Shown in pieces: positions 10,928 to 60,489 of a stretch of DNA of 64,000 nucleotides. This DNA comes from Candidatus Eiseniibacteriota bacterium (GTDB lineage Bacteria; Eisenbacteria; RBG-16-71-46). A program made the position numbers and the translations under genes. Numbering within the stretch: position 1 is the first letter of the stretch; each line of letters opens with the position of its first letter. The notes beneath the pieces were generated by a model, which saw nothing but the letters and a program-made list of their open reading frames with translations, was not told the DNA's origin and did no database searches. The DNA lies in contig JABFRW010000052.1 in the NCBI GenBank assembly GCA_013140805.1, positions 371 through 64,370 on the forward strand, given 5' to 3'.

Positions 10928-11905
10928 GTGAGCCGGGTGCCTGGCGAGCCGCTCGCCACCGCCGCAGCAGCAGCCGCCACGCGCCGCGCCGGAAACGGCC
11001 GCTGGCTGGTCGCGGGGGCCGCAACGTTGTGGGGAACAACCGCGACGCTCGCTCGCTTCGTCTTTCATGATCGAAGCGTTTCGCCGTTCGTGGTTGTCGA
11101 GTTGCGCCTCGCGATCGCGGTCGCGGTACTCGGACTCTGGCTCGCGATTCGAGACCCGAGTGCGTTTCGAGTGTCAGCGAGCGCACTGCTCGAACTGGTC
11201 GTTCTCGGTGCCGTCGGTGTCACGCTGGTCCAGGTCAGCTACTACTACTCGATCGCGCATCTGGGCGTGGGACTGGCGATCCTGCTGCAGTATCTGGCGC
11301 CTTCGTTGATCGTGGCGCTCCACCTGATCCGCCGCCAGCCGACTCGCCGTGAGACTGCGCTCGCCGTGTTGATGGCGGCGAGTGGAACTGCGCTGCTCGT
11401 GAGTCGCGTCCCTCGAGAGGCGGCGGATGCCACTCCGCTGCAATGGGCGGTGAGTTTTGCGTCGGCAGCCTTTTTTGCGGGCTACATCCTGCTCTCGAAA
11501 CGGATACTCAAGACGCATCGACCCGAGACGACGCTGTTCTACTCGTTCTCGACCGCGGCGGTCGTCCTTGCGATCGTCGCGCCACCGTGGCGAATCGCCG
11601 CCGCCGGGTACGGCGCCGATCTGTGGCTGATGTTCGTGGCTCTCGGCCTACTCTCGACCCTCGCGCCGTTCGTACTCTTCAATTTCGGGCTCCAGCGCAT
11701 GCCGGCCGCCGAAGCGGGCATCGTTGCGACACTCGAGCCGGTCGTCGCGGTCATCTCGGCGTGGGTATTTCTGGGCGAACGCCTCGAATCACTGCAGTGG
11801 GCAGGCGCGGCACTCGTTCTCTCAGCAGCCGTCCTGGCGTCCGGTGCTGAAACGCCGACCGCAAAACGAATCCCCGCCACGCCGAGGCAGAGCAAGTTGT
11901 CGTGA
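10928..11905 (+). CDS. EamA/DMT-family transporter (10 TM)
   Basis: Two EamA-like hydrophobic repeats; 325 aa. Confidence 0.85.
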   Translation: MSRVPGEPLATAAAAAATRRAGNGRWLVAGAATLWGTTATLARFVFHDRSVSPFVVVELRLAIAVAVLGLWLAIRDPSAFRVSASALLELVVLGAVGVTLVQVSYYYSIAHLGVGLAILLQYLAPSLIVALHLIRRQPTRRETALAVLMAASGTALLVSRVPREAADATPLQWAVSFASAAFFAGYILLSKRILKTHRPETTLFYSFSTAAVVLAIVAPPWRIAAAGYGADLWLMFVALGLLSTLAPFVLFNFGLQRMPAAEAGIVATLEPVVAVISAWVFLGERLESLQWAGAALVLSAAVLASGAETPTAKRIPATPRQSKLS

Positions 11906-11936
11906 GTTTCGGCATGGCGGGGTGAATCCTCGGTGC

Positions 11937-12413
11937 CTAGCTGGCCCGAGCCAGGTTCGACTCGTCGCTGACGCGATGATGCGAACGGTGCACGGTGTGC
12001 AGTCGCGACTGCACTCGCTCGAGCCTCGATGCGCTCACGGTCTCGACCGCGTAGCGTTCGTCCCACACCAGATTCCCGCCCAGCCACACACGCAACTCGG
12101 GGTGTCGCTCGAGCAGCACCACACTGGTGCGACCCTTGAGCTCTCGAATCGCGCTCGCGATGCTCTGCGCCGGACGCAGGCCCATGAGCACGTGAACGTG
12201 ATCGAGTCCGACCGCGAGATCGACGACTTCGAATCCCCGCTCCTCGCACAGCGTGCGAATCAAGGACTCGAGCGTCACCGCATGGCGGTCCTTCATGACC
12301 GGTCGCCGACCGCGCGTGCTCCAGGTGACGAGATAGTGGAGTCGACTCCGGTACACGGGCTCCCATCGGCCAAGCAGAGCGTTCTGAACTGAGGGAGCGA
12401 TGACATTGCTCAT
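11937..12413 (-). CDS. IS200/IS605-family Y1 (HUH) transposase TnpA homolog, solo, without detectable IS ends
   Basis: HUH motif 'LDHVHVLMGL'; C-terminal catalytic-Tyr context 'WDERYAVETV'; 158 aa. Only ~66 bp of flanking non-coding DNA in total. Confidence 0.85.
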   Translation of the reverse strand: MSNVIAPSVQNALLGRWEPVYRSRLHYLVTWSTRGRRPVMKDRHAVTLESLIRTLCEERGFEVVDLAVGLDHVHVLMGLRPAQSIASAIRELKGRTSVVLLERHPELRVWLGGNLVWDERYAVETVSASRLERVQSRLHTVHRSHHRVSDESNLARAS

Positions 12414-12434
12414 GATGCCGCCTCCTGCGGGGTG

Positions 12435-12450
12435 CTGAACGGATGTGCAG
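12435..12450. promoter_or_regulatory. LexA-box-like palindrome CTGAAC-GGAT-GTGCAG between SD and upstream terminator of the tnpA homolog
   Basis: Matches TGNNC-N4-GTGCA; one half-site mismatch relative to the lexA operator at 13170-13185. Confidence 0.5.
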
Positions 12451-12459
12451 TTAATGGGT

Positions 12460-12490
12460 CCGAAAAACGGGAGCTTTCGCTCCCGTTCGG
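12460..12490 (-). terminator. Intrinsic terminator of lexA (stem ccgaacgggagc/gctcccgtt + U-tract on minus strand)
   Basis: Hairpin 20 bp downstream of the lexA stop; minus-strand transcript ends in gcucccguuuuucgg. Confidence 0.7.
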
Positions 12491-12509
12491 GGTGCCGGTG
12501 CCGAGCGAC

Positions 12510-13124
12510 TCAGCGACCGACGGTTCGCATGACACCTTTCACGATTCCGAGCACACGAAACTCCTGATCGCTTCCAACCAGGATCGGCTTGTACTTCTCG
12601 TTCGCCGGTTCGAGTTCGAGGTGGGTTCCGCGAGGGCGGTAGTACTTCACCGTCGCCTCATCGCCGATCAACGCGACGATCATGTCACCCGACGAAGCAC
12701 GATCCTGACTGCGAACGATCACGAAGTCTCCTTCGAGGATCCCCGCGTCGATCATGCTGTCACCGCGAACCTTCAGCGCGAACAGTCCCTGCGTATCGCC
12801 GAACAGCTCGCCGGGCTTGAGCGATTCGTCGAACGAAGTCTCGGCGAGAATCGGTTCGCCTGCCGCGACGCGCCCGAGAATCGGAATGCCGCCGAGTTGC
12901 GGTAGTGGTCCGTCGTCATGCAGGAGCAGATCGATCCCGCGCGAAATCTTCGCGTTGCGGCGGATGAAGCCTTCCCGCTCGAGCGACGTCAGATGATGTC
13001 GGACGCCATTGGTCGACATGATCTCGAATGCTTCGCCGATCTCGCGAATGGTCGGCGGGTAGCCTCGCTCGCGAGCGAAGGTCCGGATGTAGTCGAGAAT
13101 CTCTCTCGCCCGCTCACTGAGCAT
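12510..13124 (-). CDS. lexA: LexA repressor (SOS response)
   Basis: Winged-helix N-terminus 'TIREIGEAFEIMSTNGVRHHLTSLEREGFI'; C-terminal S24 peptidase Ser/Lys dyad region; 204 aa. Confidence 0.95.
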   Translation of the reverse strand: MLSERAREILDYIRTFARERGYPPTIREIGEAFEIMSTNGVRHHLTSLEREGFIRRNAKISRGIDLLLHDDGPLPQLGGIPILGRVAAGEPILAETSFDESLKPGELFGDTQGLFALKVRGDSMIDAGILEGDFVIVRSQDRASSGDMIVALIGDEATVKYYRPRGTHLELEPANEKYKPILVGSDQEFRVLGIVKGVMRTVGR

Positions 13125-13169
13125 GGCTTCTTCTCCTTCGGGGTGGGTCCGTCAGGGCCCTAGCACGTG

Positions 13170-13185
13170 CGGGACCGTACTGCAC
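13170..13185. promoter_or_regulatory. Putative LexA operator CTGCAC-ACGC-GTGCAG (Fibrobacteres-type TGCNC-N4-GTGCA box), 46-61 nt upstream of the lexA start
   Basis: Perfect inverted half-sites CTGCAC/GTGCAG in the lexA promoter; autoregulation is expected. Confidence 0.7.
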
Positions 13186-13539
13186 ACGCGTGCAGCCGTC
13201 AAGAGAAAGAGTTCGGCTGGCGAGCGAAGCCCGTCGGACGGCCCCGATTCGTCACGCTCGTCGCCGCCTCGACGCCGAGGGCGTCACGCGCGACCACTGG
13301 GGCGCCGGTCGAGTCGAGCAGGTCTCATGGAATCCGGCGCAATTGCGTTCCTCCTGCGCGTGAAGTCAGCGCCCGATGAATGGCCCTCGACTTGCCCTAT
13401 GACTTGAACGAGGTCGCAAGGCCTCGAACCACGACAGGCAAGGGGCGGGCGGCACGAAGCTCCGAGGTCGATCGCAATCGGGGGCCGGTCACTGAGGAGT
13501 CGGACCACCGCTGCCTTGTCGGTCGGGGGAAGCGCACGC

Positions 13540-18234: not shown

Positions 18235-19140
18235 ATGTCCTCCGCCTCCCCGAGCGCGAACCCATTCGAACGCGTCCGCACCTACGCGTCGTTCGTGCGC
18301 TTCGAGCACACGCTGTTTTCTCTGCCGCTGGTGCTCGCCGGCATCTTCAGCGTCGCGGGCCCGGCGCTTGCCGCCGCCCGCTGGGGCTGGATCGCGCTCG
18401 CGGCCGTCGGTGCCCGCACCGCCGCGATGGCGATCAATCGCATCGTGGATCGGCGGCTCGATGCCCTGAACCCGCGCACCCGATCGCGCGAACTGCCCGC
18501 CGGAACCATGAAAGCACTCGAAGCCTGGGGGCTGCTGGCGGCGAGTGGTGTGGCGTATCTGATCGCATGTCGTGCGCTGGGGCCCTGGTACCTGCGCGTT
18601 TCGTGGGTGCCGCTCGCGGTGTTCACGATCTACCCGTATCTCAAGCGGTTCACGCCGCTCTGCCACTTCGGGGTCGGTGCCGCACTGGCACTCGCGCCTC
18701 TGGCAGGCTTCGCAGCCGCGCATCCCGATCTCGAGATGTCGCGCACCGCGCTGTGGCTGGCCGGTTTCGCGCTGGCGTGGGTGTCGGGCTTCGACATCAT
18801 CTACGCGACGCTCGACGAGGACTTCGACCGCCTGCACCGGGTGCGCTCGATGGTGACGTGGCTCGGCCGCGACCCCGCCCTGCGGGTCTCGGTGGCCCTG
18901 CACGGCATCGCGTTCCTGTGTCTGCTGGGCGTCGCAGGATCGGTGCTCGCGAGTGTCGGCGACCCGCCCGCGTGGGCGTTCTTCGCGGTCGTGGTACTCC
19001 TCACGCTCAGCGGCGTGCTGCTGTGGCTTGAGCAGCGCTGGGCGGAGGACGTGGACCTGGCGTTCTTCAAGGTCAACGTATGGGTCGGCGCCGCGGTGCT
19101 CGCGACCGTGCTGGTTGCGCGCGCGGCCGGAGGATTTTGA
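18235..19140 (+). CDS. UbiA-family aromatic prenyltransferase (likely MqnP of the futalosine menaquinone pathway)
   Basis: Asp-rich motif 'NRIVDRRLD'; multiple TM segments; directly followed by ubiX/ubiD homologs. Confidence 0.9.
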   Translation: MSSASPSANPFERVRTYASFVRFEHTLFSLPLVLAGIFSVAGPALAAARWGWIALAAVGARTAAMAINRIVDRRLDALNPRTRSRELPAGTMKALEAWGLLAASGVAYLIACRALGPWYLRVSWVPLAVFTIYPYLKRFTPLCHFGVGAALALAPLAGFAAAHPDLEMSRTALWLAGFALAWVSGFDIIYATLDEDFDRLHRVRSMVTWLGRDPALRVSVALHGIAFLCLLGVAGSVLASVGDPPAWAFFAVVVLLTLSGVLLWLEQRWAEDVDLAFFKVNVWVGAAVLATVLVARAAGGF

Positions 19141-19694
19141 TGAAGCGCTACCTGATCGGCATGACCGGCGCCTCGGGCAGTGTCTATGGCGTGGACTTTC
19201 TCAAGCGCTGCCCGGGCGAGAAGTTCCTCGTCATGAGCGACTGGGCGCGACAGGTGTTGCAGTCCGAGACCGGGCTCAAGGCGTCGGACCTCGAAGCGCA
19301 CGCGAAGAAGTTGTTCCTCGACAGCGACCTGGCGGCACCGTTCAGCTCCGGCAGCAATCGCTATGACGCTTACGTGATCGTGCCGTGCAGCGTCTCGACG
19401 CTCGCGAAGATCGCCGCGGGCATCGCGGACACGCTCATCACGCGCGCCGCAGCCGTAGCGCTCAAGGAACGCATGCGCATGGTGCTGTGCGTGCGCGAGA
19501 CTCCGCTGTCCTCGATCGCGCTCGAGGCGTGTCTCAAGCTGTCGCGAGAGGGCGTAGTGATCATGCCGGTTTCGCCGCCCTGGTACGCGAACCCGCGTGA
19601 TCTCGATCAGCTGGTCGGCGGCTTCAGCCACAAGCTGCTCGCGCTGCTCGGCGAAGGCGCAGGCCCCGGCTGGCGCGAAGAGGCGCTCGAGTAA
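19140..19694 (+). CDS. ubiX: Flavin prenyltransferase UbiX family (likely MqnL)
   Basis: 'MKRYLIGMTGASGSVYG' flavoprotein N-terminus; 184 aa. Confidence 0.9.
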   Translation: MKRYLIGMTGASGSVYGVDFLKRCPGEKFLVMSDWARQVLQSETGLKASDLEAHAKKLFLDSDLAAPFSSGSNRYDAYVIVPCSVSTLAKIAAGIADTLITRAAAVALKERMRMVLCVRETPLSSIALEACLKLSREGVVIMPVSPPWYANPRDLDQLVGGFSHKLLALLGEGAGPGWREEALE

Positions 19695-19695
19695 C

Positions 19696-21585
19696 GTGGC
19701 TCCCTTCCGCTCCCTCACCGACTTCCTCGACCATCTCGATCACCACGGCGACCTCAAGCGCGTGACGCGCGAGGTGGACTTCGCGCATGAAGTCACCGAG
19801 ATCGCGTGCCGCGAGGCCAGGGCACAGGGCCCCGCGCTGCTGTTCGAGAAGGTGCGCGGCGCGCGCTTCCCGCTCGCGGTCAACGTGCTCGCGGCCACGC
19901 GACGCATCGAGTGGGCGCTCGGCCGCACCGCGAAGAGCGTCGGCGCCGAAATCGAAGAGATTTTCCACGCGCTGCCGCCACGGCGGATCTCGGATCTGTG
20001 GAAGCTGCGCGGCAGTGTGCCGCGACTCCTCGCCTCGCGCCCGCGGACGATCGGCGTCGCCCCGGTGCACGATGCGCGCGGCGTGACCTTCGACGATTTG
20101 CCGCTGCTCAAGCTGTGGCCTCGCGACGGCGGGCGTTTCGTCACGTTTCCGCTCGTGTTCACGGAGGATCCCGACACTCACAAGCGCAATCTCGGGATCT
20201 ATCGCATGCACGTGTACGACGCGAAGACCAGCGGCATGCACTGGCAGATCGGCAAGGGCGGCGGCTTCCACTTTCACACCGCCGAGTCGCGCGGTCTCCC
20301 GCTCGGCGTGGCGGTCGCGGTGGGCGCCGACCCGGCGACTCTGCTCGCGGCGGTCTCGCCGCTGCCCGAGGGCATCGACGAACTCGCGTTCGCGGGATTC
20401 CTGCGCGGATCGCCCACGCGACTCACGCGCGCCCGCACCATGGACATGCTGGTGCCGGCGGATGCCGAGTTCGTGATCGAAGGCGTGGTGCCGGCCGGTG
20501 AGCGCCGCACCGAGGGCCCGTTCGGCGATCACTTCGGGCACTACTCGCAGTCGGCGCCGTTCCCGGTCTTTCACGTTCGCGAGATCACGCACCGCGCGCG
20601 TCCGGTGTTCCAGGCCAGCGTGGTCGGCAAGCCACCGCAAGAAGATCTGTGGATGGGCGAGGCGATCCAGGACATGTTCCTCGGCGTGCTCAAGGTGATC
20701 CACCCCGAAGTGGTGGATCTGTGGGCCTACTTCGAAGCCGGCTTCCACAACCTGCTGGTGGTGGCGGTGAGCAATCGCTTCGCGCGCGAAGCACGCAAGA
20801 CCGCCCTGGGCTTGATGGGCACCGGCCAGCTCTCGCTCACCAAGTGCATCGTGCTGGTCGATGGCGACGTGAATCCTCGCGATCGACGCGCGGTGTTCGA
20901 AGCGCTGGCGCGCAACTTCGACGCGACCGAAGACTTCATGCTGATCCCCGGTGTGCCGCTCGACACGCTCGACTTCACGAGCTACCGCATGAACCTCGGC
21001 AGCAAGATGGTGCTCGACGCCCAGTCGTCACCCGGCGGTGCGGCGGCCCGCGCCGGAGGATCGAGCGGGCGCGTCGCCGCCGTCGCGCCGCTCGACCCGC
21101 CGCTCGAGGTGCCGGATCCGCGCGCATTCGCGGACGGCATCACGGCGTGGCGCCTCAAGTGGAGCGGCATTCTCGCGGTACAGGTGGCGGGCGCCATCGG
21201 TGGTGACGCCGCGACCTGGGAGATCGAAGCTGCCGAGCGCGCGGGCGATTCGTCGGAGCCCGCCGGGAACGACACCGTGCCGGCGACCCCCGGGCGCGCA
21301 GTCGTGGAAGCGCTGGTGCGGCGCCCCGAATACGCGGCGGTGCGATTCATCGTGGCGGTGAGCGGCGATGTCGACCTCGACGACGACGCGATCTTCCTGT
21401 GGGGCTGGTTCACGCGCTTCGACTGTGCCCGCGACGTGGTGCCCGCTCATGCCGAGACGCGAGGTGCGTGGCTCACGTGTCGCGGGCCGCTCGGAATCGA
21501 CGCCACCTGGAAGCGCGGCTACCCGGAACCGGTCGCGAATCTGCCCGAAGTGATCCGTGCGGTCGACGGCTGGTGGGGGAAGTGA
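19696..21585 (+). CDS. ubiD: UbiD-family (prFMN-dependent) decarboxylase (likely MqnM) with ~130-aa C-terminal extension
   Basis: GTG start right after the ubiX stop; UbiD core; Ala/Gly-rich C-terminal extra region. Confidence 0.9.
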   Translation: MAPFRSLTDFLDHLDHHGDLKRVTREVDFAHEVTEIACREARAQGPALLFEKVRGARFPLAVNVLAATRRIEWALGRTAKSVGAEIEEIFHALPPRRISDLWKLRGSVPRLLASRPRTIGVAPVHDARGVTFDDLPLLKLWPRDGGRFVTFPLVFTEDPDTHKRNLGIYRMHVYDAKTSGMHWQIGKGGGFHFHTAESRGLPLGVAVAVGADPATLLAAVSPLPEGIDELAFAGFLRGSPTRLTRARTMDMLVPADAEFVIEGVVPAGERRTEGPFGDHFGHYSQSAPFPVFHVREITHRARPVFQASVVGKPPQEDLWMGEAIQDMFLGVLKVIHPEVVDLWAYFEAGFHNLLVVAVSNRFAREARKTALGLMGTGQLSLTKCIVLVDGDVNPRDRRAVFEALARNFDATEDFMLIPGVPLDTLDFTSYRMNLGSKMVLDAQSSPGGAAARAGGSSGRVAAVAPLDPPLEVPDPRAFADGITAWRLKWSGILAVQVAGAIGGDAATWEIEAAERAGDSSEPAGNDTVPATPGRAVVEALVRRPEYAAVRFIVAVSGDVDLDDDAIFLWGWFTRFDCARDVVPAHAETRGAWLTCRGPLGIDATWKRGYPEPVANLPEVIRAVDGWWGK

Positions 21586-21592
21586 CTCGTTC

Positions 21593-22501
21593 GTGAGCCG
21601 GCGCCCCGCTCGCTCGCTCGTCTACGCCGGCATGGTGTGTTCCGCGCTGATCGCGGGCAGTTCGTACCCGATCTTCAAGCGCACCGTCGCCGAGATTCCT
21701 GCGATGCCGTTCACGCTGATGCGCTTCGCGCTGGCGGCGGCGTTCATGGCGGTCGCGCTACGCGTTTCGGGCGACCGACAAACGATCGCACCGGCCGATC
21801 GTAAGCGGCTGTGGCTCGCCGGCATTCTGGTGGTGCCGATCAACGCCGGACTCTTCATCTTCGGAATCCAGTGGACCAAGGCGGCGCACGGCGCGCTTCT
21901 CTACGCGCTCACTCCCGCGGCGGTGCTGGTGATCACCAGCATTCAGTCGCGGCGGCTTCCCTCTCCGCTCGCGTGGGTCGGCGCCGGGCTCGCGTTTGCG
22001 GGGGTCCTGGTGCTGCTGCTCGAGCGCGGGTTGTCGTTCGAGTGGCACGCGCTGCGCGGTGACCTGCTCATCCTGATCGCGGTGTTCGCGTGGGCCTGGT
22101 ACACGGCACTCGGCCGCGGACTGACCGCGAGCTATGGCGCGGTCGGCACCGCAGCGCGCGCGGTGCTCTACGGCACGATCGCGTTCGCGCCGTTCGGATT
22201 GCTGTTCTGGGGCGGCTTCGATCCGCGCACCGTGTCGATGGTGGCATGGGCGGGGCTCGTCTACCTGGCGTGGTTCGTCGCCGGCATCAACTTCATCCTG
22301 TGGTACTGGGGCGTGAAGCAGCTCTCGCCCGCGGGGGTCGCGGTGTTCGCGAATCTGCAGCCGCTGGTCGCCGCAGGTATGGCGTGGTGGCTGCTGCACG
22401 AGGCGCTCGCACCCTCGTTCTGGTTGAGCGTCGCGCTGGTGCTCACCGGCGTCGCGGTGACGCAGCGGGCGGCCCAGGCGGCGGTGCGCGCCTCGAGCTA
22501 G
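21593..22501 (+). CDS. EamA/DMT-family transporter
   Basis: 10-TM EamA repeats; GTG start chosen just after the ubiD stop (ORF track starts at 21557). Confidence 0.8.
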   Translation: MSRRPARSLVYAGMVCSALIAGSSYPIFKRTVAEIPAMPFTLMRFALAAAFMAVALRVSGDRQTIAPADRKRLWLAGILVVPINAGLFIFGIQWTKAAHGALLYALTPAAVLVITSIQSRRLPSPLAWVGAGLAFAGVLVLLLERGLSFEWHALRGDLLILIAVFAWAWYTALGRGLTASYGAVGTAARAVLYGTIAFAPFGLLFWGGFDPRTVSMVAWAGLVYLAWFVAGINFILWYWGVKQLSPAGVAVFANLQPLVAAGMAWWLLHEALAPSFWLSVALVLTGVAVTQRAAQAAVRASS

Positions 22502-25500
22502 CGAACCACCGCGAAGCGGCGCGCGGCACGGCGGCCATCGCACTCGAGCACCGCGACGTAGACGCCGGCGCCGACGCGGCTCGCATCCCAGTTCACGCGC
22601 TGCAGTCCCGCCGAACGCGGCTCGTCGATCACTCTGGCTACCAGTCGTCCGCTCACGTCGAACACGTTCAGGCGGATGCGCGACGCCTTCGACAGTGCGA
22701 AACCGAAGGCGGCACGCGAGCCGAGCGGATTGGGAGCCACGGCGAGTTCGAGCTCGTCCCGCGCCGGCAGTTCGATTCCCGGTTCGACCGCGGTCGCGGC
22801 GGACAAGCGCACGCGTGCGCGAACGGCCGAGACCGTGACGCCGCAGCGCGCGCTGCCGGGCGGCTTGGTCAGATTGTCGTTCGAGTGCAGATAACCGATC
22901 GCGGTGACGTCTTCGAAGACGTGCGGAACGAATGCGGCTGCGGGCAGATCGAACTTGAAGTTCTTGGGTGGCGAGGGCGAGTAGAGGGCCCAGCGACGCG
23001 CGTCCGGATTCGTCATCACGAAGTCGGCGGTCGCGCTGGCGGCCGGACCCGCGAAGTCTTCGGAGACCCAGAACTGCGTGCCGTCCCGCACCACGAATCG
23101 CAGCTGGCCGGAATTGAGACTGGGAGTGGCGAAGCTGCCCGAGTAGTCGAGCAGTTCGAGCGTGCTCGAAGGACCGAAGGCCACGCGCGGAGCGTGGGCG
23201 CCGACTCGGAAGTCTTCCTTCTTCCAGTAGCGCAGGTCCCAGCCGATGGTGCCGGTCGGGCCACCCGAGTGCAGCGCGTCGAGCGCGCCGCGATCCCACA
23301 CTTCGGCCTCGTGATAGGCGAAGAAGCCGAAGTAGCTCTCCATCAGGAGTCCGCCGTAGAAGCGGCCGTTCACACCGAGCGTGTCCGCGGCGGCCGTCAT
23401 CAGCGGCAGGACGTCGCTGAATGGAATCGACCAGCGTGCGCCGGTGGCGCCGCCTTCGAGCTGCACCTGCAGTTCGGCGGGCGTGTTGAATTCGCGCAAC
23501 AGAGCGTCGCCCGTGTGGGTGTAGTCGCCGCTCCAGTCGAGCGCGAGGATGGTGTCCTCGGGCGATGAAACGTAGCGCGCGACATAGGCGGTCGGAGTCG
23601 CGGGTGTGGCGACATCGTGGGTGTCGGCCGTTGCGTCGGACCAGCCTGCGAACAGCCACACCTTGCCGTTGGCGGTCTGCACGCCGGGTGCTCCGAACGA
23701 GCGCAATACGCCGATGGTGCTCGTGAACGCGAGCGGCGTCGGAATGAGTCCGCCATCCAGTACCAGCGGGATGCCGGGTGGATCGGTCTGCAACGTGAGC
23801 ACCGTGGTGTCGGGCAACACATCGCGATACACCGTGGTGGTGAGTCCCTGGGAATCGACGACCCGCAGGTTCACCCGCAGCCAGATGTTGTTCTCGATGT
23901 GATTGCGCGCCGCGATGCCGTAGCTGCCGCTCGCGAGCCCCGAGGTCTCGGGCAGCCCCGGGTGCAGGTGCTGGTCGTGATGCAGATCGATCCACCACGT
24001 ATACGCCGCGGGCGGCAGCGTGCCGTCCTCCGGATCGCTCGCGGTTCCCGAGAACTCGAGCGTGGTGCCGCCTCGAAAGCGCGCGCCCTCGGGCGGCGTG
24101 ACGATCGAGGCCAGCGGTGACTGCGATCCGATCACCGACAGGATCGCGGCGTCGCTGGTGTCGGCGCCGGTCGCGTTGCTCACGATACAGCGAAACGTGG
24201 CGCCGCTGTCGGCCTTGACCGCGTCGCGGAGCACGTAACGCGGTGTGTTCGCGGCGCCGATCGGCGCGTTGCCTCGCAGCCACTGATACGCCAGCGGAGG
24301 CGTGCCGTTGGCGGTGACCGTGAACTCGGCCGAATCGCCGGTCGCGATGCTGACGCTCTGCGGATGGAGCCCGATCGAAGGCGCGAAGCTCGCGGTGTAG
24401 GCGATCTTCACCAGCACGCCGGTGTTGCTGCCGTCACCGCGCGCGATGTAGTAGAGGTTGCCGTCGACTCCGAGCGCCACGCCGACCGGATTGATCGCGA
24501 GCGTGATCCCCAGCACCTGAGAAGTCGCCGGCGAGGCCGGATTGATCCAGCGGATCTCCTCGGCGCACAGGTCGCTGAAGAAGTAGCGGCCGCGCCACTG
24601 CGGCGGCCACCGCGTGGTGTCGGGATCGAAGAATGCGCCGCCCACGATCGCGCAGCCGTTCGAGTGGTTGTAGGCGTGCAGCGGCGGCACGTAGGTCGGA
24701 GCGCCGCCCGGGCCCTCGACGCTCGGCCAGCCATAATTCGAGCCCGGCGCGAGATCGTTGATCTCTTCGAACGCATCCTGACCCACGTCGTTGACGAACA
24801 TGCGGCCGGTACCTGGCTGCACCGCGAACGTGAACGGATTGCGAAAGCCGCGCGCCCAGATCGCGCGATTCTTGCCGGTGGTCTGGGCATAGAACGGATT
24901 GTCGGTCGGAATCGTGCCGTCGCGTCGGATGCGCGAAATCTTGCCGCGCAGGCTGGTGAGGTTCTGCGCCTCGTTGCTCGAGGCGTTCTCGCCCATTGCG
25001 ATGTACAGCATGCTGTCGGCGCCGAAGCGAATCGCGCCGCCGACGTGGAAGTCGGAGAGGTTCTGATCGAGGTCGAACAGGTTGACCGCACTGCCGACCA
25101 GCGCGACGTCACCGTTGGCGGTGAAGCGCGTGATGCGATTGAACGACGACGGCGTGGTGTAGCAGGCGTACACATGACCGTTGGTGGTGAACGCGGGATC
25201 GAATGCGAGCCCGAGCAACCCCTGCTCGCCGGGTGTCATCACCGAAAGCGTGGTGAACGCGGTGGGCAGCAACGCACCGTTCTTGACCACGCGAATCGCG
25301 CCACCTTGTTGACCGATGAAGATGCGACCGTCGGGTGCCATCGCCATGCAGGTGGGCGTCTGGAGGCTCGAGGTCAGCACCGTTTCGCTGAAATCCGCCG
25401 GCACGCTCGCGCGCGAGCGGCCGGGCGTGACGCACCACAGGCCGAGCAGCAACGTGAGGGCACAGCACGGCGTGAAGCGTGGCCAAGTCGAGGTCACGAA

Positions 25501-25554
25501 CGGGGCTCCGGGCGCGGATCTGGATGAAAAAGGGAGGCGACCCGCGCACTCCAT
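22498..25554 (-). CDS. Giant secreted multidomain protein, paralog 1: signal peptide, PQQ-dependent sugar dehydrogenase (GSDH)-like beta-propeller, Ig-like domains, His-cluster domain, T9SS C-terminal sorting domain
   Basis: 'LLGLAFDP' GSDH-type motif; 'WWIDLHHDQHLHPG'; C-terminus 'PNPLGSRAAFGFAL...GVYVAVLE...RRFAVVR' typical of a Por_Secre_tail. Confidence 0.85.
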   Translation of the reverse strand: MECAGRLPFSSRSAPGAPFVTSTWPRFTPCCALTLLLGLWCVTPGRSRASVPADFSETVLTSSLQTPTCMAMAPDGRIFIGQQGGAIRVVKNGALLPTAFTTLSVMTPGEQGLLGLAFDPAFTTNGHVYACYTTPSSFNRITRFTANGDVALVGSAVNLFDLDQNLSDFHVGGAIRFGADSMLYIAMGENASSNEAQNLTSLRGKISRIRRDGTIPTDNPFYAQTTGKNRAIWARGFRNPFTFAVQPGTGRMFVNDVGQDAFEEINDLAPGSNYGWPSVEGPGGAPTYVPPLHAYNHSNGCAIVGGAFFDPDTTRWPPQWRGRYFFSDLCAEEIRWINPASPATSQVLGITLAINPVGVALGVDGNLYYIARGDGSNTGVLVKIAYTASFAPSIGLHPQSVSIATGDSAEFTVTANGTPPLAYQWLRGNAPIGAANTPRYVLRDAVKADSGATFRCIVSNATGADTSDAAILSVIGSQSPLASIVTPPEGARFRGGTTLEFSGTASDPEDGTLPPAAYTWWIDLHHDQHLHPGLPETSGLASGSYGIAARNHIENNIWLRVNLRVVDSQGLTTTVYRDVLPDTTVLTLQTDPPGIPLVLDGGLIPTPLAFTSTIGVLRSFGAPGVQTANGKVWLFAGWSDATADTHDVATPATPTAYVARYVSSPEDTILALDWSGDYTHTGDALLREFNTPAELQVQLEGGATGARWSIPFSDVLPLMTAAADTLGVNGRFYGGLLMESYFGFFAYHEAEVWDRGALDALHSGGPTGTIGWDLRYWKKEDFRVGAHAPRVAFGPSSTLELLDYSGSFATPSLNSGQLRFVVRDGTQFWVSEDFAGPAASATADFVMTNPDARRWALYSPSPPKNFKFDLPAAAFVPHVFEDVTAIGYLHSNDNLTKPPGSARCGVTVSAVRARVRLSAATAVEPGIELPARDELELAVAPNPLGSRAAFGFALSKASRIRLNVFDVSGRLVARVIDEPRSAGLQRVNWDASRVGAGVYVAVLECDGRRAARRFAVVR

Positions 25555-34844: not shown

Positions 34845-34954
34845 CGTATCGAATTTGCCCCTGCCTCGGGACTCGGAGATGACCGTTTCCGCGGGTCGGG
34901 GCTATACTGCGGCCCGTTTTGAGCATCCTTTCCAGCGCTCAGCAAGGAGCCCCC

Positions 34955-36148
34955 GTGAACGAACTCGTCGCCGCGCTGCGGTTACGCGATCCCGTGGTCG
35001 AAGCCGCTCGCGTCCGGCTGCTGGCCGGCGAACGCCTGAGCCAGGAGGACGGCCTGCGCCTGTATGACGCCCCGGTGATGGAACTGGGGCGGCTGGCCGA
35101 TGCAGTGGCGCGAGATCGGCATGGGGACCGCGTGTACTTCACGGTCAATCGTCAGCTCAATCCGACCAACGTCTGCGTGCTGGCCTGCAAGTTCTGCGAC
35201 TACGCGAAGAAGCCCGACGATCCGACCGCCTACACGATGACGAAGGAACAGATTCTCGGGCACGTGGACTCCGAGATCACCGAGATCCACATCGTGGGCG
35301 GGCTCCACAACAAGTGGCGCTTCGACGACTACCTGAACGTGATCCGGTGGGTGAAGGAGAAGAAGCCGAGCCTGAGCGTCAAGGCCTACACGGCGGTCGA
35401 GATCGACTTCTTCTGCCGACTCACCAAACAGTCGGTCGAGTGGGTGCTGACCGAGTTGAAGCAGGTGGGGCTCGATGCACTGCCGGGCGGTGGCGCCGAA
35501 GTGTTCAGCGAGCGGGTGCGGCGCGAGATCTTCCATCAGAAGATCGGTGCACAGCGCTGGCTGGAGATTCACGAGACCGCACATCGGCTCGGGATCCCCA
35601 GCAACTCGACGCTGCTCTACGGCCACATCGAGACGCGCGCCGAGCGCGTTCAGCACCTGATCATGTTGCGCGATCTCGAGGATCGAGCACCCGGCTTCTT
35701 CGCCTTCATCCCGCTCGCGTTTCAGCCCGGCACCACGGGCCTGGTGCGCCGGCAGGTGTCGGCGATCGAAGACCTCAAGACCATCGCGATCTCGCGGCTG
35801 GTATTCGACAACGTGAAGCACGTGAAGAGCTACTGGATCATGCTCGGACAGGACACGGCGGCGGCCGGCATTCACTTTGGCGCTAGCGATCTCGACGGCA
35901 CGATCGGCCAGGAGAAGATCGCGCACGCCGCCCTGGCCCGCAGCCCGATCGGCATGGCCGAGGCCGGCATGGTGCAGATGATCCGCGAAGCCGGAAAGAT
36001 CCCGGTGCAGAGAGACGCGCTGTACCGGGTGATTCGCGAGTATCCGCGGCGCGAAGTCGAAGATGCTCTGTCGAGCTTCACGGGGGTGACGGTGCGGCGG
36101 ACGGAGCCCTCGGCCGGCGGTGTCGCAACCATCGAGGCGCCGCGATGA
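34955..36148 (+). CDS. Radical-SAM MqnE/MqnC-family enzyme (aminofutalosine synthase or cyclic dehypoxanthinyl-futalosine synthase)
   Basis: 'CVLACKFCDY' CxxxCxxC cluster motif; AAGGAG-N5-GTG start. Confidence 0.9.
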   Translation: MNELVAALRLRDPVVEAARVRLLAGERLSQEDGLRLYDAPVMELGRLADAVARDRHGDRVYFTVNRQLNPTNVCVLACKFCDYAKKPDDPTAYTMTKEQILGHVDSEITEIHIVGGLHNKWRFDDYLNVIRWVKEKKPSLSVKAYTAVEIDFFCRLTKQSVEWVLTELKQVGLDALPGGGAEVFSERVRREIFHQKIGAQRWLEIHETAHRLGIPSNSTLLYGHIETRAERVQHLIMLRDLEDRAPGFFAFIPLAFQPGTTGLVRRQVSAIEDLKTIAISRLVFDNVKHVKSYWIMLGQDTAAAGIHFGASDLDGTIGQEKIAHAALARSPIGMAEAGMVQMIREAGKIPVQRDALYRVIREYPRREVEDALSSFTGVTVRRTEPSAGGVATIEAPR

Positions 36149-38570: not shown

Positions 38571-38573
38571 CAC

Positions 38574-38589
38574 TGCTCACTTGTGCAGG
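38574..38589. promoter_or_regulatory. LexA-box-like palindrome CTGCTC-ACTT-GTGCAG, 53-68 nt upstream of the SPL-like radical SAM gene
   Basis: Exact match to TGCNC-N4-GTGCA. Confidence 0.55.
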
Positions 38590-38641
38590 CGCGACGGAGC
38601 CGCGATAATGGCGGCCGGTGCCGGGCCAGGAGGGCAGAAGC

Positions 38642-39538
38642 ATGCAGATCGAGTATCGAGAAGAGCCGTGCCGCAGTGCGCTCAATCGAGTCGTCGGCAT
38701 GGGATTCGAGTGGTCGCTCAATCCCTACATGGGCTGCGCGCATCGATGCGCGTTCTGCTATGTGCGGCAGTTCGAGCGCCGCGCCGAGCGACCGAGCGGC
38801 GAGACCTACGGGCTCTCGATTCGCGTCAAGACCAACATCGCGCAGGTGCTCCGAACTGAACTCGCGCGACCCTCATGGAAACGCGAGCAGGTGGCGATCG
38901 GAGCCGCGACCGATCCCTACCAACCGATCGAGGGACAGTATCGGCTCACCCGTGCGTGCCTGATCGAGCTGTCGCGTGCACGGACTCCATTCGGGATCAT
39001 CACGCGCGGACCGCTGATCGTGCGAGATCTCGACGTGCTCACCGAGGCGGCGAAGCGCGTGAAGGTGGGCGTCAGCATCTCGATTCCTACGCTCGACGAG
39101 GCGGTGTGCCGCACGCTGGAACCCGGCGCACCACCGCCGCGTGCGAGGCTCGAAGCCGTGCGGCGACTGGTCGACGCGGGCATTCGCGCCGGCATCGGAA
39201 TGGCGCCGATTCTTCCGGGCCTATCGGACGCGCCGGAGCAACTCGCGGCCGTCGTGCGCGCCGCGCGCGAAGTGGGCGCGGTCTCGCTGTGGGCCGGCGT
39301 CGTGTACCTGAAAGACGCACCACGCGAGCACTTTCTCGACGCGCTCCGGCGCGAGTGGCCGGAGCAGCTGGCGTACTACGAGAAACTGTTCGCGAGTCGC
39401 TCGTATCTACCCAGGCGGCTCACCGCACCGATCGTCGAGAAGGTGCGAGAGCTCAAGCTGCTGCACGACATCGCAGACCGGCGCACCCTGCGGCTGGAGC
39501 CAGCACCCGAGCCGGGGCAGTTGCTGCTGGGGGTGTGA
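38642..39538 (+). CDS. Radical-SAM DNA-repair enzyme of the spore-photoproduct-lyase-like (SplB / 'DNA repair photolyase', COG1533) family
   Basis: 'CAHRCAFCY' CxxxCxxC motif; AGGAGG-N7-ATG start. Confidence 0.8.
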   Translation: MQIEYREEPCRSALNRVVGMGFEWSLNPYMGCAHRCAFCYVRQFERRAERPSGETYGLSIRVKTNIAQVLRTELARPSWKREQVAIGAATDPYQPIEGQYRLTRACLIELSRARTPFGIITRGPLIVRDLDVLTEAAKRVKVGVSISIPTLDEAVCRTLEPGAPPPRARLEAVRRLVDAGIRAGIGMAPILPGLSDAPEQLAAVVRAAREVGAVSLWAGVVYLKDAPREHFLDALRREWPEQLAYYEKLFASRSYLPRRLTAPIVEKVRELKLLHDIADRRTLRLEPAPEPGQLLLGV

Positions 39539-40208: not shown

Positions 40209-40294
40209 GCGTTCCTCCTCGAGCAGGTGGGTTCCACTCAGCAGGCTAGCACCCGATGGTGCCACGCCCCCCACTTGGCTATCCTCCGGCCCGC

Positions 40295-41089
40295 ATGAAC
40301 CGCTCCCACAAGCTGCTCACCGGCACGGTCGCGGCGCGCATTCCGTACGCGAACGCCGCACCGTTCTATGCGCTGTGGAACGACGCGCCCTTCGCGGTGC
40401 GCAATCTGGTTCCGCGCGATCTGGGGCGGGAGGCCGAAGCGGGTGGCGTGGACCTGGGCCTGATGGCATCGGGCGATTACCTGCGCTTGAAGGATCGCTT
40501 CGAGATCGTGGGCCCATTCGGCGTCGCGGCGCGCGGGCCGGTGCTGTCGGTGCTGCTCTACTCGCGGCGTCCGGCGGCCGCACTCGGTGACGCGCTCATC
40601 TCGGTGACGCCCGAGACCTCGACCTCGATCCGGCTACTGCGCCTGCTGCTCGACGTGCGGCGCGGGCTGACCGGCATCCGCTACGTGCGCGGCCTCGAGC
40701 CGCGGCAGGCGGCCGCACTGCTCATGATCGGCGATCGCGCGATGCGCATGCGCGATCAGCGCCCTGAGGGCTTCACGCACACGCTCGATCTGGGCGCCGA
40801 CTGGCTCGAGTGGACGAATCTCTCGTTCGTCTACGCGGTGTGGGTGATCCGCCGAGCACTCGATCCCGAAGTGAAACGCGAGTTGACGGAGTTCCTCGAG
40901 TCGTCGCTGGCCGCCGGCCTTGCGAACCTGCCCGAGATCGCGCGCCAGCAGATCGAGCCGGGCTGGAGCGCCGAGGAGACCGAAGCGTATCTGCGTCGCT
41001 TCCACTATCGCCTCGGCCCCGAGGACCTGGCGGGTCTGGATCGATTCGAAGCGCTGCTGCATCAGCACGGCCTGCGCGAAGTCGACTGA
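40295..41089 (+). CDS. mqnA: Chorismate dehydratase MqnA (futalosine pathway; PF02621)
   Basis: 'ARIPYANAAPFYAL' N-terminal motif. Confidence 0.85.
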   Translation: MNRSHKLLTGTVAARIPYANAAPFYALWNDAPFAVRNLVPRDLGREAEAGGVDLGLMASGDYLRLKDRFEIVGPFGVAARGPVLSVLLYSRRPAAALGDALISVTPETSTSIRLLRLLLDVRRGLTGIRYVRGLEPRQAAALLMIGDRAMRMRDQRPEGFTHTLDLGADWLEWTNLSFVYAVWVIRRALDPEVKRELTEFLESSLAAGLANLPEIARQQIEPGWSAEETEAYLRRFHYRLGPEDLAGLDRFEALLHQHGLREVD

Positions 41090-44738: not shown

Positions 44739-44770
44739 TTGCGGCCCGCGTCTCACGGCGCGGGCCGCAA
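44739..44770 (+). terminator. Intrinsic terminator after the M13 peptidase gene (12-bp stem ttgcggcccgcg / cgcgggccgcaa, then tcgtttcg)
   Basis: Hairpin 47 bp after the stop, followed by a CCGTCCG x4 direct repeat. Confidence 0.6.
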
Positions 44771-44834
44771 TCGTTTCGTCCGCCGTCCGTCCGCCGTCCG
44801 TCGTGCGCCGCGCCAGGGGCAGGAGAGACTCGCC

Positions 44835-46055
44835 GTGTGGTCACGCATCGAATCCAAGCTGCTTGCGGGTGAACGGCTGATTACCGCCGAAGGCGTCTAT
44901 CTGCTCGCCGAAGCGCCGCTGCTCGAGATGGGTGCACTCGCGAACGAAATGCGGGCTCGCAAGACCGATCCGCGCGTCGTCACGTACGTGATCGATACCA
45001 ATCCGAACTACACCAACCTGTGCACGGTCGACTGCCACTTCTGCGCGTTCTACCGCAAGCCGGGCGCCAACGCCGCCGACGCCTACACGCACGACGTCGA
45101 GGGCGTGATGAAGATGATGGCGCAGGCGCGCAAGGTCGGCGCCACCACCGTGCTTCTTCAGGGCGGCCTCAACCCCGAGATCCCGTGGGAGTTCTACCCG
45201 ACCATCGTGCGCGAGGCGCGGGCGCGTTACCCAGAGATCACGCCGCACTTCTTCTCGGCTCCCGAGATCCACCAGATGATCGAGGTGTCGGGGCTCACCA
45301 TGCGCGGAGTGCTCGAGGCGCTCTACGAGGCGGGTCAGCGCACGCTGCCCGGCGGCGGAGCTGAAATCCTCGCCGACCGCGTGCGCAAACGCGTGTCGGT
45401 CAAGAAGGGCGGGCCCGAGGCGTGGCTCGAGGTCCATCGCACCGCGCACGCGGTCGGCATGCGCTCGACCGCCACCATGATGTACGGCCACGTCGAGACC
45501 CACGCCGAGATCATCGAACACCTCGACTACGTGCGTGCGCTCCAGGACGAGACCCGCGGCTTCACGGCGTTCGTGCCGTGGTCTTACAAGCGCGGCAACA
45601 CGCCGATGGAATCGAAGGTCAAGCACGTGGCCGGTGCCGGCGCCTACCTGCGGGTGCTGGCCGCAGCGCGGCTCTACCTGGACAACTTCGATCACATTCA
45701 GGCGTCGTGGTTCAGCGAGGGCAAGAAGACCGGCCAGATCGCGCTGCACTTCGGCGCCGACGACTTCGGCGGCACGCTGTTCGAAGAGAACGTGCACCTG
45801 GCGACCGGCTGGTCGAACAAGACCACGCTGGCCGAGATCGAAGCACTGATCCGCGAATCGGGCTTCGCCCCGGCGCAGCGCACCACGCTCTACGAGATCC
45901 TGCGAGTCGGCGAGGGCCCCGAGGCGCTCGCGAACCTGTCGGCCGACGTGCCGCTGTTCGTCGAGGCCCTGCGCGAAATGCCGGCCGAGTACCCGGTGCA
46001 ACTCGAGGGCGAAGAGCCCGTCGCGCCCGGGCCGCCGCTGATCATGCCGCGCTAG
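44835..46055 (+). CDS. Radical-SAM MqnC/MqnE-family enzyme (second paralog)
   Basis: 'CTVDCHFCAFY' motif; GTG start preceded by aggagag. Confidence 0.9.
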   Translation: MWSRIESKLLAGERLITAEGVYLLAEAPLLEMGALANEMRARKTDPRVVTYVIDTNPNYTNLCTVDCHFCAFYRKPGANAADAYTHDVEGVMKMMAQARKVGATTVLLQGGLNPEIPWEFYPTIVREARARYPEITPHFFSAPEIHQMIEVSGLTMRGVLEALYEAGQRTLPGGGAEILADRVRKRVSVKKGGPEAWLEVHRTAHAVGMRSTATMMYGHVETHAEIIEHLDYVRALQDETRGFTAFVPWSYKRGNTPMESKVKHVAGAGAYLRVLAAARLYLDNFDHIQASWFSEGKKTGQIALHFGADDFGGTLFEENVHLATGWSNKTTLAEIEALIRESGFAPAQRTTLYEILRVGEGPEALANLSADVPLFVEALREMPAEYPVQLEGEEPVAPGPPLIMPR

Positions 46056-47703: not shown

Positions 47704-47882
47704 AGTCCCAGGGTAGGAATCGTGCATTCCAGCCAGGCCGAACGGGGATTCGAGGGCGTGCGCGAAGAATCTCGAGTGCGCGCTTGGGGACTCGCGCATC
47801 TGCGTCCTACCATGTTCGACCCTTGCACCCCGCCGTCCGAGCGCCGCGCACACCACATCGAGAGTTCAGGGAGGTATTCCCG

Positions 47883-50800: not shown

Positions 50801-51050
50801 CAACCCCGCCGGCGCCATGGTGCGATTCGGTCTCGATCTGCCCCGACGTGGTGCGGTAGCATTTCGGGTCCTCGACGTTCAGGGTCGCGAGGTGTGGACG
50901 CAAGGCGCGCGGGAATTCGCGGCCGGGCACTGGAATCTCGAGTGGCCGTCACGGTTGGCGGACGGTTCGCGAGCTCCGGCAGGTCTCTACCTCGCGTTGA
51001 TTGCCGTCGAGGGCCGCACGTACGCTCGACGGATTGCGGTCGTGCGATGA
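47883..51050 (+). CDS. Giant secreted multidomain protein, paralog 2: signal peptide, GSDH-like beta-propeller, PKD domain, LDDF-bracketed jelly-roll-like domain, His-cluster domain, CARDB-like domain, T9SS C-terminal domain
   Basis: AGGGAGG-N7-TTG start; 'GLLDVAVDPDF', PKD 'TVQFSSAASSDPDGD', 'YLHHNTHVHPNTF', C-terminus 'FPNPAGAMVRF...GLYLALIAVEGRTYARRIAVVR'. Confidence 0.85.
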   Translation: MFRRLRIQAGFAVLLAAIAVSATASQVGASITLPYPFWYFNAAPGTTFDTPTGIAFMPDGRLLVSEKRGRVYVIKDGTRLTTPLWQRENEVLNNGDKGLLDVAVDPDFAINRYVYLLYTVDPDTNGVDDNEDAFGRLTRYQVSATDPNVVDYDTRTVLMGRVWNEGPTIGSITHSIGSLRWGTDKTLLISMGDGAQFTVMDPGGLDPAMFGPGKANPYEDIGAFRAQDITVLPGKVLRIDPATGHGMPSNPFYDGNPSSNRSKVWAYGVRNPFRICVRPGSGSSNPADGDPGSVYVGDVGWETWEEVSVIKTGGTNLGWPCFEGTHNNSPYQSASPAHNGCGSVGSATNPSPFTAPFTDWHHANASLSSPSGVKGNSAIGGTFYTGVSWPLAFRGRLIVGDYGYGFMRVATVDANDDVTAWTSFAAETDGPVDMATGPYDGDLYYVSITTGEVRRIHYFRPLGGNQAPNAVAGADLLLGTAPLTVQFSSAASSDPDGDSLRTTWTFDDGSGSFLANPTHSFQYAGTYQVQLLVDDDRLNEGTHTVTIVVNPSQPFPATGTLDDFNRANGPLGASWSDPVHGAAAAAVNGNDLVQSGVTPTEPVWDPQVFGTEQEAYVRFDATTSNSPEQALLLKLQGARSDSSHIRVVYDARFPHVQVATFQPGIGEVVRGAAIPIEFVVGDTLGARAFGNGTVQVFHNGALIGTVSVGSWPYAASGGRIGLALTGALLTRLDDFGGGNFAGGANTAPLAVIDAPIDSAFFAAQDSIHMSGSGVDAQQPAEALQYFWDVYLHHNTHVHPNTFTSSNRNAAMVAEDHEDGTGVWYEVRLYVQDAEGLRDTARVDLFPEINLRASELAVTPDPPTEGQWATWSFKLRNLGRMPAPISRWRLVLGNTLLAEGDTLIAPGDSVLISATLINPLGGGSFTARATGDTLANVVETDESDNASIRQVEMAGSPVGVGQAPQRFALSQGFPNPAGAMVRFGLDLPRRGAVAFRVLDVQGREVWTQGAREFAAGHWNLEWPSRLADGSRAPAGLYLALIAVEGRTYARRIAVVR

Positions 51051-51081
51051 CTTCCCGCTTACGCATCGGAGACCTACCGGT

Positions 51082-54240: not shown

Positions 54241-54262
54241 CCGGATGCATCGGAGGGTCGGC

Positions 54263-60434: not shown

Positions 60435-60489
60435 GTGAGCGCTCCCAAGGGTCAAGAGTCGCGCAGGATAGCGCACACGCGGCCGTGGC

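Follow-up and report, generated by a model that had tools for sequence, protein, structure and literature searches.

In a 64,000-nucleotide stretch of DNA from a Candidatus Eiseniibacteriota bacterium (contig JABFRW010000052.1 of assembly GCA_013140805.1, positions 371 to 64,370; referred to at its full length as the window), similar 16-nt boxes precede three genes, namely lexA, a gene of the IS200-like Y1 (HUH) TnpA type directly downstream of lexA, and a radical S-adenosylmethionine (rSAM) gene. Are these boxes operators of LexA, and if so, what would a transposase-like gene be doing under the control of LexA? The initial annotation of this locus had proposed a candidate SOS regulon containing a DNA-photoproduct repair enzyme and a LexA-controlled HUH transposase. 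Here we report comparative support for a predicted LexA regulon at this locus, while the repair enzyme and the active transposase were not borne out as its members. Judging from the sequence comparisons, the window very probably holds the core SOS circuit of a Candidatus Eisenbacteria bacterium, in which LexA would act on all three boxes, the one in front of a Y1 transposase relic included. The operator and the link of the rSAM (splB) gene to LexA are ordinary, and the Y1 neighbour gene is the least expected part. To our knowledge, Eisenbacteria have no cultured member, and our literature search found no paper mentioning LexA of Eisenbacteria.

The three boxes are CTGCACACGCGTGCAG (box 1, in the lexA promoter), CTGAACGGATGTGCAG (box 2, between the lexA terminator and the Shine-Dalgarno (SD) sequence of the Y1 gene) and CTGCTCACTTGTGCAG (box 3, 53 nt upstream of the ATG of the rSAM gene), at the coordinates given in Table 1. 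All three had been quoted with the correct sequence, and box 2 also with the correct position. Box 1 had been placed at 13170-13185, which is wrong, and the annotated feature, ending at 13190, cuts through the box; box 3, for which the distance to the ATG was right, had been placed one base off, at 38574-38589. The pattern CTGNNCN4GTGCAG matches the window three times, at these boxes only, against 0.27 matches expected, and none of 100 shuffled windows reached three matches. The looser pattern TGCNCN4GTGCA with one mismatch allowed gave 29 matches in the window against 25.7 expected. As the loose pattern is not enriched, only the full 16-18-mer is informative, and for scanning the loose pattern was rejected in favour of an 18-nt position weight matrix (PWM), built from 22 lexA-promoter sites only. 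The PWM scored 26.8 at box 1, 19.7 at box 2 and 15.7 at box 3, and no other site in the 64 kb reached 10; shuffled windows contained 0.025 hits of at least 15 per window. Over 236 kb from 21 other Eisenbacteria loci, the PWM found only lexA sites and Y1-gene sites. Chance occurrence of the boxes was thus rejected, both by the count of three against 0.27 expected and by the specificity of the PWM.

The repressor itself is a typical LexA, with both of its domains recognised (PF01726, 2e-19; PF00717, 1e-28) and a TIGR00498 score of 199.7 bits against a cut-off of 110.95. A Candidatus Eisenbacteria metagenome-assembled genome (MAG) encodes a protein called LexA with 100% identity to it. The Ala88-Gly89 cleavage site (VAAGEP), Ser123 (GDSM) and Lys160 are invariant in an alignment of 25 sequences, and the cleavage machinery is intact. 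For comparison, we used 21 further Eisenbacteria lexA loci (L001-L021) from species-representative genomes, with LexA proteins 56-65% identical to that of the window. The promoters follow the scheme TTGAC-N4-TGCAC-N4-GT[G/T]CA-N-TAnnnT, where TTGAC and the box are present in 22 of 22 promoters (the 21 loci and the window) and TAnnnT directly follows the box in 20 of them, L005 and L020 being the ones that deviate. The whole operator thereby lies inside the 17-nt spacer between -35 and -10. Since neighbouring intergenic bases are randomised at this level of LexA identity, the lexA box is a strong phylogenetic footprint. The proposal that the palindrome is the LexA operator of this lineage agrees with its conservation within the lexA promoter in all 22 genomes, and the reading of the palindrome as a textbook autoregulatory LexA operator is, at the level of sequence, well supported comparatively. 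The consensus, together with the 22 promoter sites, gives a ready, testable predicted operator for the whole candidate phylum. Three Eisenbacteria loci with divergent LexA proteins (L050, L069 and L076) have boxes of the ACTGCACAAATGTGCAGT type. In L076 (5687-5727), the boxes are in tandem (GCTGCACGGATGTGCAGT and GGTGCACAGATGTGCAGG), 5 nt apart and about 300 nt before the divergent LexA homologue.

An automated promoter scan of positions 11800-13400 returned no sigma-70-like promoter, and the lexA terminator was missed as well. The lexA promoter escaped because TTGACG-17-TACGGT is below the scanner's 9-of-12 criterion; the terminator escaped because the stem absorbs part of the T-run. The lexA leader carries a conserved feature of its own. 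About 7 nt after the -10, the 22 promoters show cGTGCC[A/G]GGTCC...GGACC, or also GGTTCG...CGAACC, with the two arms changing together. An Rfam scan of the window gave no match, and neither the terminator nor the conserved leader of lexA can thus be ascribed to a known RNA family. The leader hairpin could act as a stem-loop that stabilises the 5' end, or it could be another site of regulation.

The product of the gene behind box 3 had been taken for a spore-photoproduct-lyase-like DNA-photoproduct repair enzyme, which is too specific. Its score against photo_TT_lyase (TIGR04070, spore photoproduct lyase) was 16.9 bits with a cut-off of 400, and it groups with Rv2578c and PA0069, to which it aligns over the full length (rSAM_Rv2578c, 269.7 bits against a cut-off of 430; PA0069, 205.2 against 360). 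With scores below these cut-offs, the protein is a relative and not an equivalog of the two. The cysteines of its CxxxCxxC motif (C32/C36/C39) are invariant. The box, as distinct from the function, was upheld by orthologues of the gene. A related MAG (L081), in which lexA and the rSAM gene appear to lie on one 64.8-kb contig, has GTGCACACTTGTGCAA upstream of its orthologue. Among 80 metagenomic homologues (L082-L161; 61-69% identical), TGCAC-N4-GTGCA was found at -9 to -70 in 12 loci. A further 59 have the Gram-positive/actinobacterial core sequence of the LexA box, GAAC-N4-GTTC, at -23 to -46. Neither box was found in 9 of the 80, one of which has just 17 nt of upstream sequence. The rSAM gene thus bears whichever LexA box its lineage uses, and this is the best argument that LexA reads TGCAC-N4-GTGCA here. 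With either LexA-type box at 71 of 80 diverse homologues, the case for the COG1533 rSAM gene as a near-universal SOS gene is strengthened. In the Eisenbacteria-type rSAM promoters, the spacer and right arm of the box (ACTT-GTGC) double as the -35 TTGTGC, 17 nt from a GATAAT-like -10.

Two further features of the rSAM promoters were noted. In many of the loci L082-L161, no more than 7-9 nt separate the -10 (GATAAT or TATAGT type) from the ATG, which suggests leaderless or near-leaderless mRNAs, and in the loci with the Gram-positive-type sequence the box, GAAC-N4-GTTCTATA, runs into the -10. The link between splB and LexA is already-known biology. In Verrucomicrobia, splB belongs to a core regulon with lexA and imuA-imuB-dnaE2, with LexA binding demonstrated by electrophoretic mobility shift assay (PMC4951493), and the splB group is reported as LexA-regulated in Actinobacteria and Proteobacteria (PMC4951493) and in Bacteroidetes (PMC8565304) as well.

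From this arrangement we infer the following circuit. A LexA dimer would bind the TGCAC-N4-GTGCA palindrome in its own promoter and repress its own gene; as the box fills the 17-nt spacer between -35 and -10, bound LexA would exclude RNA polymerase and so repress its own synthesis. The rSAM gene would be repressed in the same way by LexA sitting on the box that overlaps its -35. At the Y1 gene, LexA is predicted to occupy the hybrid box beside the SD and either to occlude a weak promoter or to stop read-through from the terminator. DNA damage would lead to RecA-single-stranded DNA filaments and these to self-cleavage of LexA at Ala88-Gly89 through Ser123 and Lys160, as expected from the family, whereupon lexA, the rSAM gene and the Y1 gene would be derepressed.

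The region between lexA and the Y1 gene has the same order in the window, in 20 of the 21 other loci and in the distant locus L028. The lexA stop codon is followed by a hairpin with its T-run, about 13 unconserved nt, the box TGCAC-N4-GTTCA, a gap of 6-10 nt, CCCCGCAGGAGG, another 7 nt or so, and a GTG or ATG start. L002 is the only locus without both hairpin and box. The initial annotation had seen the lexA box repeated in front of the Y1 gene. A related box is indeed present there in 20 of 21 other genomes; it is not the same box but a conserved hybrid, TGCAC-N4-GTTCA and mostly TGCACAT-NN-GTTCA, in which the columns are invariant and GTTCA always lies on the side of the gene. As this hybrid pair of half-sites is the form of the lexA promoter in Latescibacterota and some Ignavibacteria, the Y1 box is a credible LexA site. 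LexA bound there may occlude a weak promoter, TTTTCR-17-TnnGTT, which overlaps the T-run and the right arm, or it may block read-through from the terminator; either mode would fit.

The terminator in the same spacer is itself unusually conserved. All 18 aligned spacers share an unchanged stem core, GGGAG/CTCCC, next to which one pair covaries, and hairpin and box are kept about 18 nt apart. A terminator needs structure and not sequence, so something reads the invariant stem core. The Y1-derived protein might target the stem, or the stem might survive from the left end of an IS200-like element. The hairpin occurs once in the 64-kb window, and the idea that it is a repeat of the repetitive extragenic palindrome (REP) type served by the Y1 protein found no support.

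The best surviving alternative concerns this box. It holds that LexA controls lexA and the rSAM gene, and that the Y1-side 14-mer is kept as part of a promoter or mRNA leader or as a recognition site of the Y1 protein, its likeness to a LexA box being then partly accidental. The T of GTTCA and the asymmetric orientation are invariant beyond what LexA binding needs, the constant hairpin-box spacing and stem core hint at a larger composite element, and no canonical promoter is evident. Against this, a PWM derived from lexA promoters alone scores the Y1 sites at 13-22 across loci, and in 300 kb (the window and the 236 kb of other loci) nothing besides these sites scores at least 12 except the lexA sites and the rSAM box of the window. 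The hybrid half-sites, moreover, are in use in lexA promoters of sister phyla, and a dual constraint, of a LexA box and an overlapping -10, explains the additional conservation. We therefore regard a purpose other than LexA binding as unlikely for the Y1-side box.

Several observations speak against LexA control of all three genes and have to be set beside the evidence above. No convincing conserved sigma-70 promoter precedes the Y1 gene, where the best -10, TnnGTT, is without the usual A at position 2; the box there sits after a good terminator. The rSAM box is the lowest-scoring of the sites, with one arm weakened (CTGCTC), and the metagenomic rSAM loci that carry the Eisenbacteria-type box have no taxonomic label. 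None of recA, uvrA, dinB and imuAB was found among the 28 open reading frames (ORFs) of the window with Pfam matches (two more ORFs gave no match, and some regions were unscanned) or in the fetched flanks. Finally, the likeness to the box of Fibrobacter succinogenes leans on a consensus, TGCNC-N4-GTGCA, which Mazon et al. (2004, Microbiology 150:3783, cited in PMC3091678) reportedly gave.

Given the tiny size of the target set, two of whose three members are not classical SOS genes, the palindrome could be assigned to a regulator other than LexA, with lexA, the Y1 gene and the rSAM gene under shared non-SOS control; short GC-rich palindromes are, after all, common targets of many helix-turn-helix proteins. 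As a rule, LexA regulates its own gene from a box in the promoter, and the palindrome lies exactly between the -35 and -10 of lexA in all 22 genomes. The motif also grades into those of other phyla. In the 130 nt upstream of lexA in loci L022-L080, a graded series of boxes was found across neighbouring phyla at the same promoter position, with TGCAC-N4-GTTCA in Latescibacterota and some Ignavibacteria, CT.[C/T]AC-N4-GTTCAG in Myxococcota, CTGCAC-N4-G[A/G]GCAG in Ignavibacteria/Zixibacteria, and CTGCTC-GCTT-GTGCAG in one Bdellovibrionales MAG. Characterised LexA boxes resemble the palindromes in the lexA promoters of Latescibacterota, Ignavibacteria and Myxococcota. A foreign regulator would, in addition, leave unexplained the Gram-positive-type GAAC-N4-GTTC at the equivalent place in rSAM orthologues elsewhere and the binding of LexA to splB promoters in another phylum (PMC4951493). 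We consider control by such a regulator very improbable, and the series from GTGCA to GTTCA half-sites serves as a data point for the drift of LexA boxes between phyla.

Having weighed the operator, we turn to the Y1 gene as the putative third target of LexA. Its product matches the Y1_Tnp and IS200 profiles (PF01797, 1.3e-22; NCBIfam transpos_IS200, 78.5 bits against a cut-off of 55), and public records label it 'IS200/IS605 family transposase'. Its AlphaFold (AF2) model (pLDDT 79) has the IS200/IS605 TnpA fold, and in Foldseek the top PDB matches of the model were the ISDra2, IS608 and IS200 TnpA proteins (E about 3e-10, TM 0.65-0.8). The HUH motif (D71-H72-V73-H74) is conserved in the main clade, and its first His is lost in the L028/P0363 branch. 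Catalytic Tyr132 of ISDra2, of which a Y132F mutant structure was among the structural matches, aligns with Arg137 of the Y1 protein. This Arg137 is invariant in 25 Y1 orthologues, and none of them has any Tyr in the C-terminal helix, whereas TnpA homologues at 25-32% identity all retain the Tyr.

The genomic setting is equally constant. All of the 21 other loci have a Y1 homologue, 56-67% identical, directly behind lexA and on its strand, and the order lexA-Y1 is found in two further contigs and in the distant L028 (LexA 48% and Y1 45% identical) as well. Each locus has a single copy, as does the window, and the Y1 protein has diverged in parallel with LexA. When 1.84 billion representatives were searched, the clade comprised about two full-length 50% clusters, the next matches being ordinary TnpAs at 38% identity or less. 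In L002 (6686-7405), part of the Y1 gene is deleted internally and its frame is shifted, and the terminator and box upstream are missing too; the gene may have decayed in that lineage, or the assembly may be wrong here. At the C-terminus (11937-11954, minus strand), after a segment that is poorly conserved and modelled with low confidence, the orthologues all end in [L/F/W]-A-x-A-S with A157 and S158 invariant. The tail looks like a recognition tag, perhaps for a protease, as in other short-lived SOS proteins.

The initial annotation had spoken of a solo IS200-like, LexA-controlled HUH transposase, and the hairpin upstream of the Y1 gene resembles the terminator hairpin that, as Beuzon and Casadesus are said to have described, lies at the left end of IS200. 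The family scores and the public name would fit such an active element beside lexA, an SOS-inducible mobile element in the manner of ISCR (insertion sequence common region) elements, and LexA-repressed HUH transposases are known from ISCR1, ISCR2 and ISCR8 (PMC13393415). A mobile element is, however, the least probable of the readings weighed here and was rejected, as the gene keeps one position and orientation at every locus, is single-copy and vertically inherited, has an upstream hairpin unique in the window, has exchanged the catalytic Tyr for an invariant Arg, lacks the first HUH His in one branch, and forms a small clade apart from ordinary TnpAs.

We read the Y1 gene instead as a probably exapted, non-catalytic derivative of TnpA that had become fixed beside lexA by the time the sampled Eisenbacteria began to diverge. 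According to a survey of the Y1 superfamily, which also defines the Y---Q motif of TnpA, all classes keep the HuH and the Y; LexA is not mentioned in it (PMC6006769). The Tyr-less TnpA-derived gene coupled to lexA across the phylum is the new element here and appears to be undescribed. Our guess, held with low confidence, is a non-catalytic role as the most likely one, such as the binding of single-stranded or hairpin DNA in the SOS response. As a tentative and somewhat doubtful history, a TnpA may have been captured beside lexA in the ancestor of Eisenbacteria, lost its nucleophile, and been kept as a LexA-controlled SOS protein that binds single-stranded or hairpin DNA without cutting it. 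If so, it might target the sequence-invariant GGGAGC/GCTCCC hairpin upstream of its gene, where binding could modulate termination after lexA and provide feedback on the SOS response. A core stress regulon would then contain a part derived from a transposase, which would also be the first Y1 class without Tyr to serve the host. The result on the Y1 gene in any case sets right a label misapplied systematically, and it suggests that the Y1/HUH fold may have found a new use in the host's response to DNA damage.

Table 1. Features of the lexA, Y1 and rSAM loci, in positions of the window (strand. means not oriented).
Feature	Position	Strand	Basis
Y1 (HUH) TnpA-derived gene, 158 aa, without nucleophile Tyr	11937..12413	-	Pfam Y1_Tnp; synteny; alignment
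SD of the Y1 gene, within conserved CCCCGCAGGAGG	12421..12427	-	Spacer alignment
Second (predicted) operator, gene strand CTGCAC-ATCC-GTTCAG (hybrid half-sites)	12435..12450	.	21 nt before Y1 start; PWM 19.7
lexA intrinsic terminator, ACGGGAGC-GAAA-GCUCCCGU + U5	12462..12487	-	Predicted fold; conserved hairpin
lexA coding sequence, 204 aa	12510..13124	-	Pfam LexA_DNA_bind + Peptidase_S24; NCBIfam TIGR00498
Start of lexA leader, GTGCYRGG + short hairpin	13144..13168	-	Recurs in 22 promoters, read by eye
lexA -10, TACGGT	13174..13179	-	Assigned from consensus, not mapped
lexA (predicted) operator, perfect palindrome CTGCAC-ACGC-GTGCAG	13180..13195	.	Conserved promoter position; PWM 26.8
lexA -35, TTGACG	13197..13202	-	TTGAC invariant in 22/22 aligned promoters
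Third (predicted) operator, CTGCTC-ACTT-GTGCAG	38573..38588	.	Overlaps rSAM -35; PWM 15.7
rSAM promoter, -35 TTGTGC and -10 GATAAT, 17 nt between	38581-38586; 38604-38609		
rSAM gene, Rv2578c/PA0069 (COG1533 'SplB') group	38642..39538	+	Pfam Radical_SAM; NCBIfam

Elsewhere in the window, positions 47784-57418 of the plus strand hold three tandem paralogues of about 1060-1090 aa with glucose/sorbosone dehydrogenase (GSDH) and PKD domains, and a fourth protein, of GSDH-Ig type, is encoded apart from these at 22498-25554 on the minus strand. Genes of the futalosine-type menaquinone pathway are scattered over 18235-21585, 34919-36148, 40256-41089, 44739-46055 and 59580-60710 and comprise two VitK2_biosynth (MqnA/D-like), two CofH/MqnC-type radical-SAM, a UbiA, a UbiX-like and a UbiD gene. 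In L162, the UbiA-UbiX-UbiD block also adjoins lexA, and so does a gene for an EamA transporter, which converges with the Y1-derived gene; synteny therefore extends beyond the lexA-Y1 pair.

How do these elements compare with known systems? Like Fibrobacteres, Eisenbacteria are assigned to the FCB group (Fibrobacterota-Chlorobiota-Bacteroidota) or its vicinity, and the initial annotation had called the operator Fibrobacter-type. The label would suit the lexA and rSAM sites, which have no mismatch to the reported consensus, and would suit the Y1 site less well, with one mismatch. The half-site GTGCA, inverted arms of 5 bp and a spacer of 4 bp are common to the two. In Eisenbacteria the consensus, (C)TGCAC-N4-GTGCA(G/C), is longer and stricter, with C almost always as the third arm base, and the Y1 site has GTTCA in one arm; the comparison is with a reported consensus. 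Other LexA motifs, variants of one palindrome, are CGAAC-N4-GTTCG in Gram-positives and actinobacteria, CTRHAMRYBYGTTCAGS in Myxococcus and TGTTC-N4-GAACA in Verrucomicrobia. These boxes share with those of Eisenbacteria a palindromic form, a 4-nt spacer and a place in the lexA promoter. The half-site centre of the Gram-positive and Verrucomicrobia boxes is GTTCG or GAACA as against GTGCA, and no Eisenbacteria site would match the Gram-positive box.

The rSAM gene has its counterparts in the SplB/COG1533 SOS genes of Mycobacterium (Rv2578c), Verrucomicrobia and Bacteroidetes, with which it shares the protein group and a LexA-type box in the promoter. It differs in scoring below the Rv2578c and PA0069 cut-offs, and the name 'photolyase' of the group is annotation only.

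For the Y1 gene, the nearest regulatory parallel is that of the ISCR elements, as the HUH transposase genes of ISCR1, ISCR2 and ISCR8 are LexA-repressed (PMC13393415). In both cases, a gene of the HUH superfamily has a LexA box near its start, and both lend themselves to the idea that single-stranded DNA is at once the SOS inducer and a substrate of the protein. ISCRs, however, are mobile and IS91-like with an active transposase, whereas the Eisenbacteria gene is fixed, single-copy and Tyr-less. The nearest evolutionary parallel is that of the REP-associated tyrosine transposases (RAYT/TnpA-REP), which are likewise single-copy, vertically inherited and host-recruited relatives of Y1 TnpA (PMC3333891, PMC8266576, PMC6006769). 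RAYTs keep both the HUH motif and the catalytic Tyr (Y---NP) and are flanked by REP repeats. The Eisenbacteria protein has Arg in place of this Tyr, scores 38.7 bits against 80 with the RAYT model, shows no repeated hairpins in the window, and is tied to lexA.

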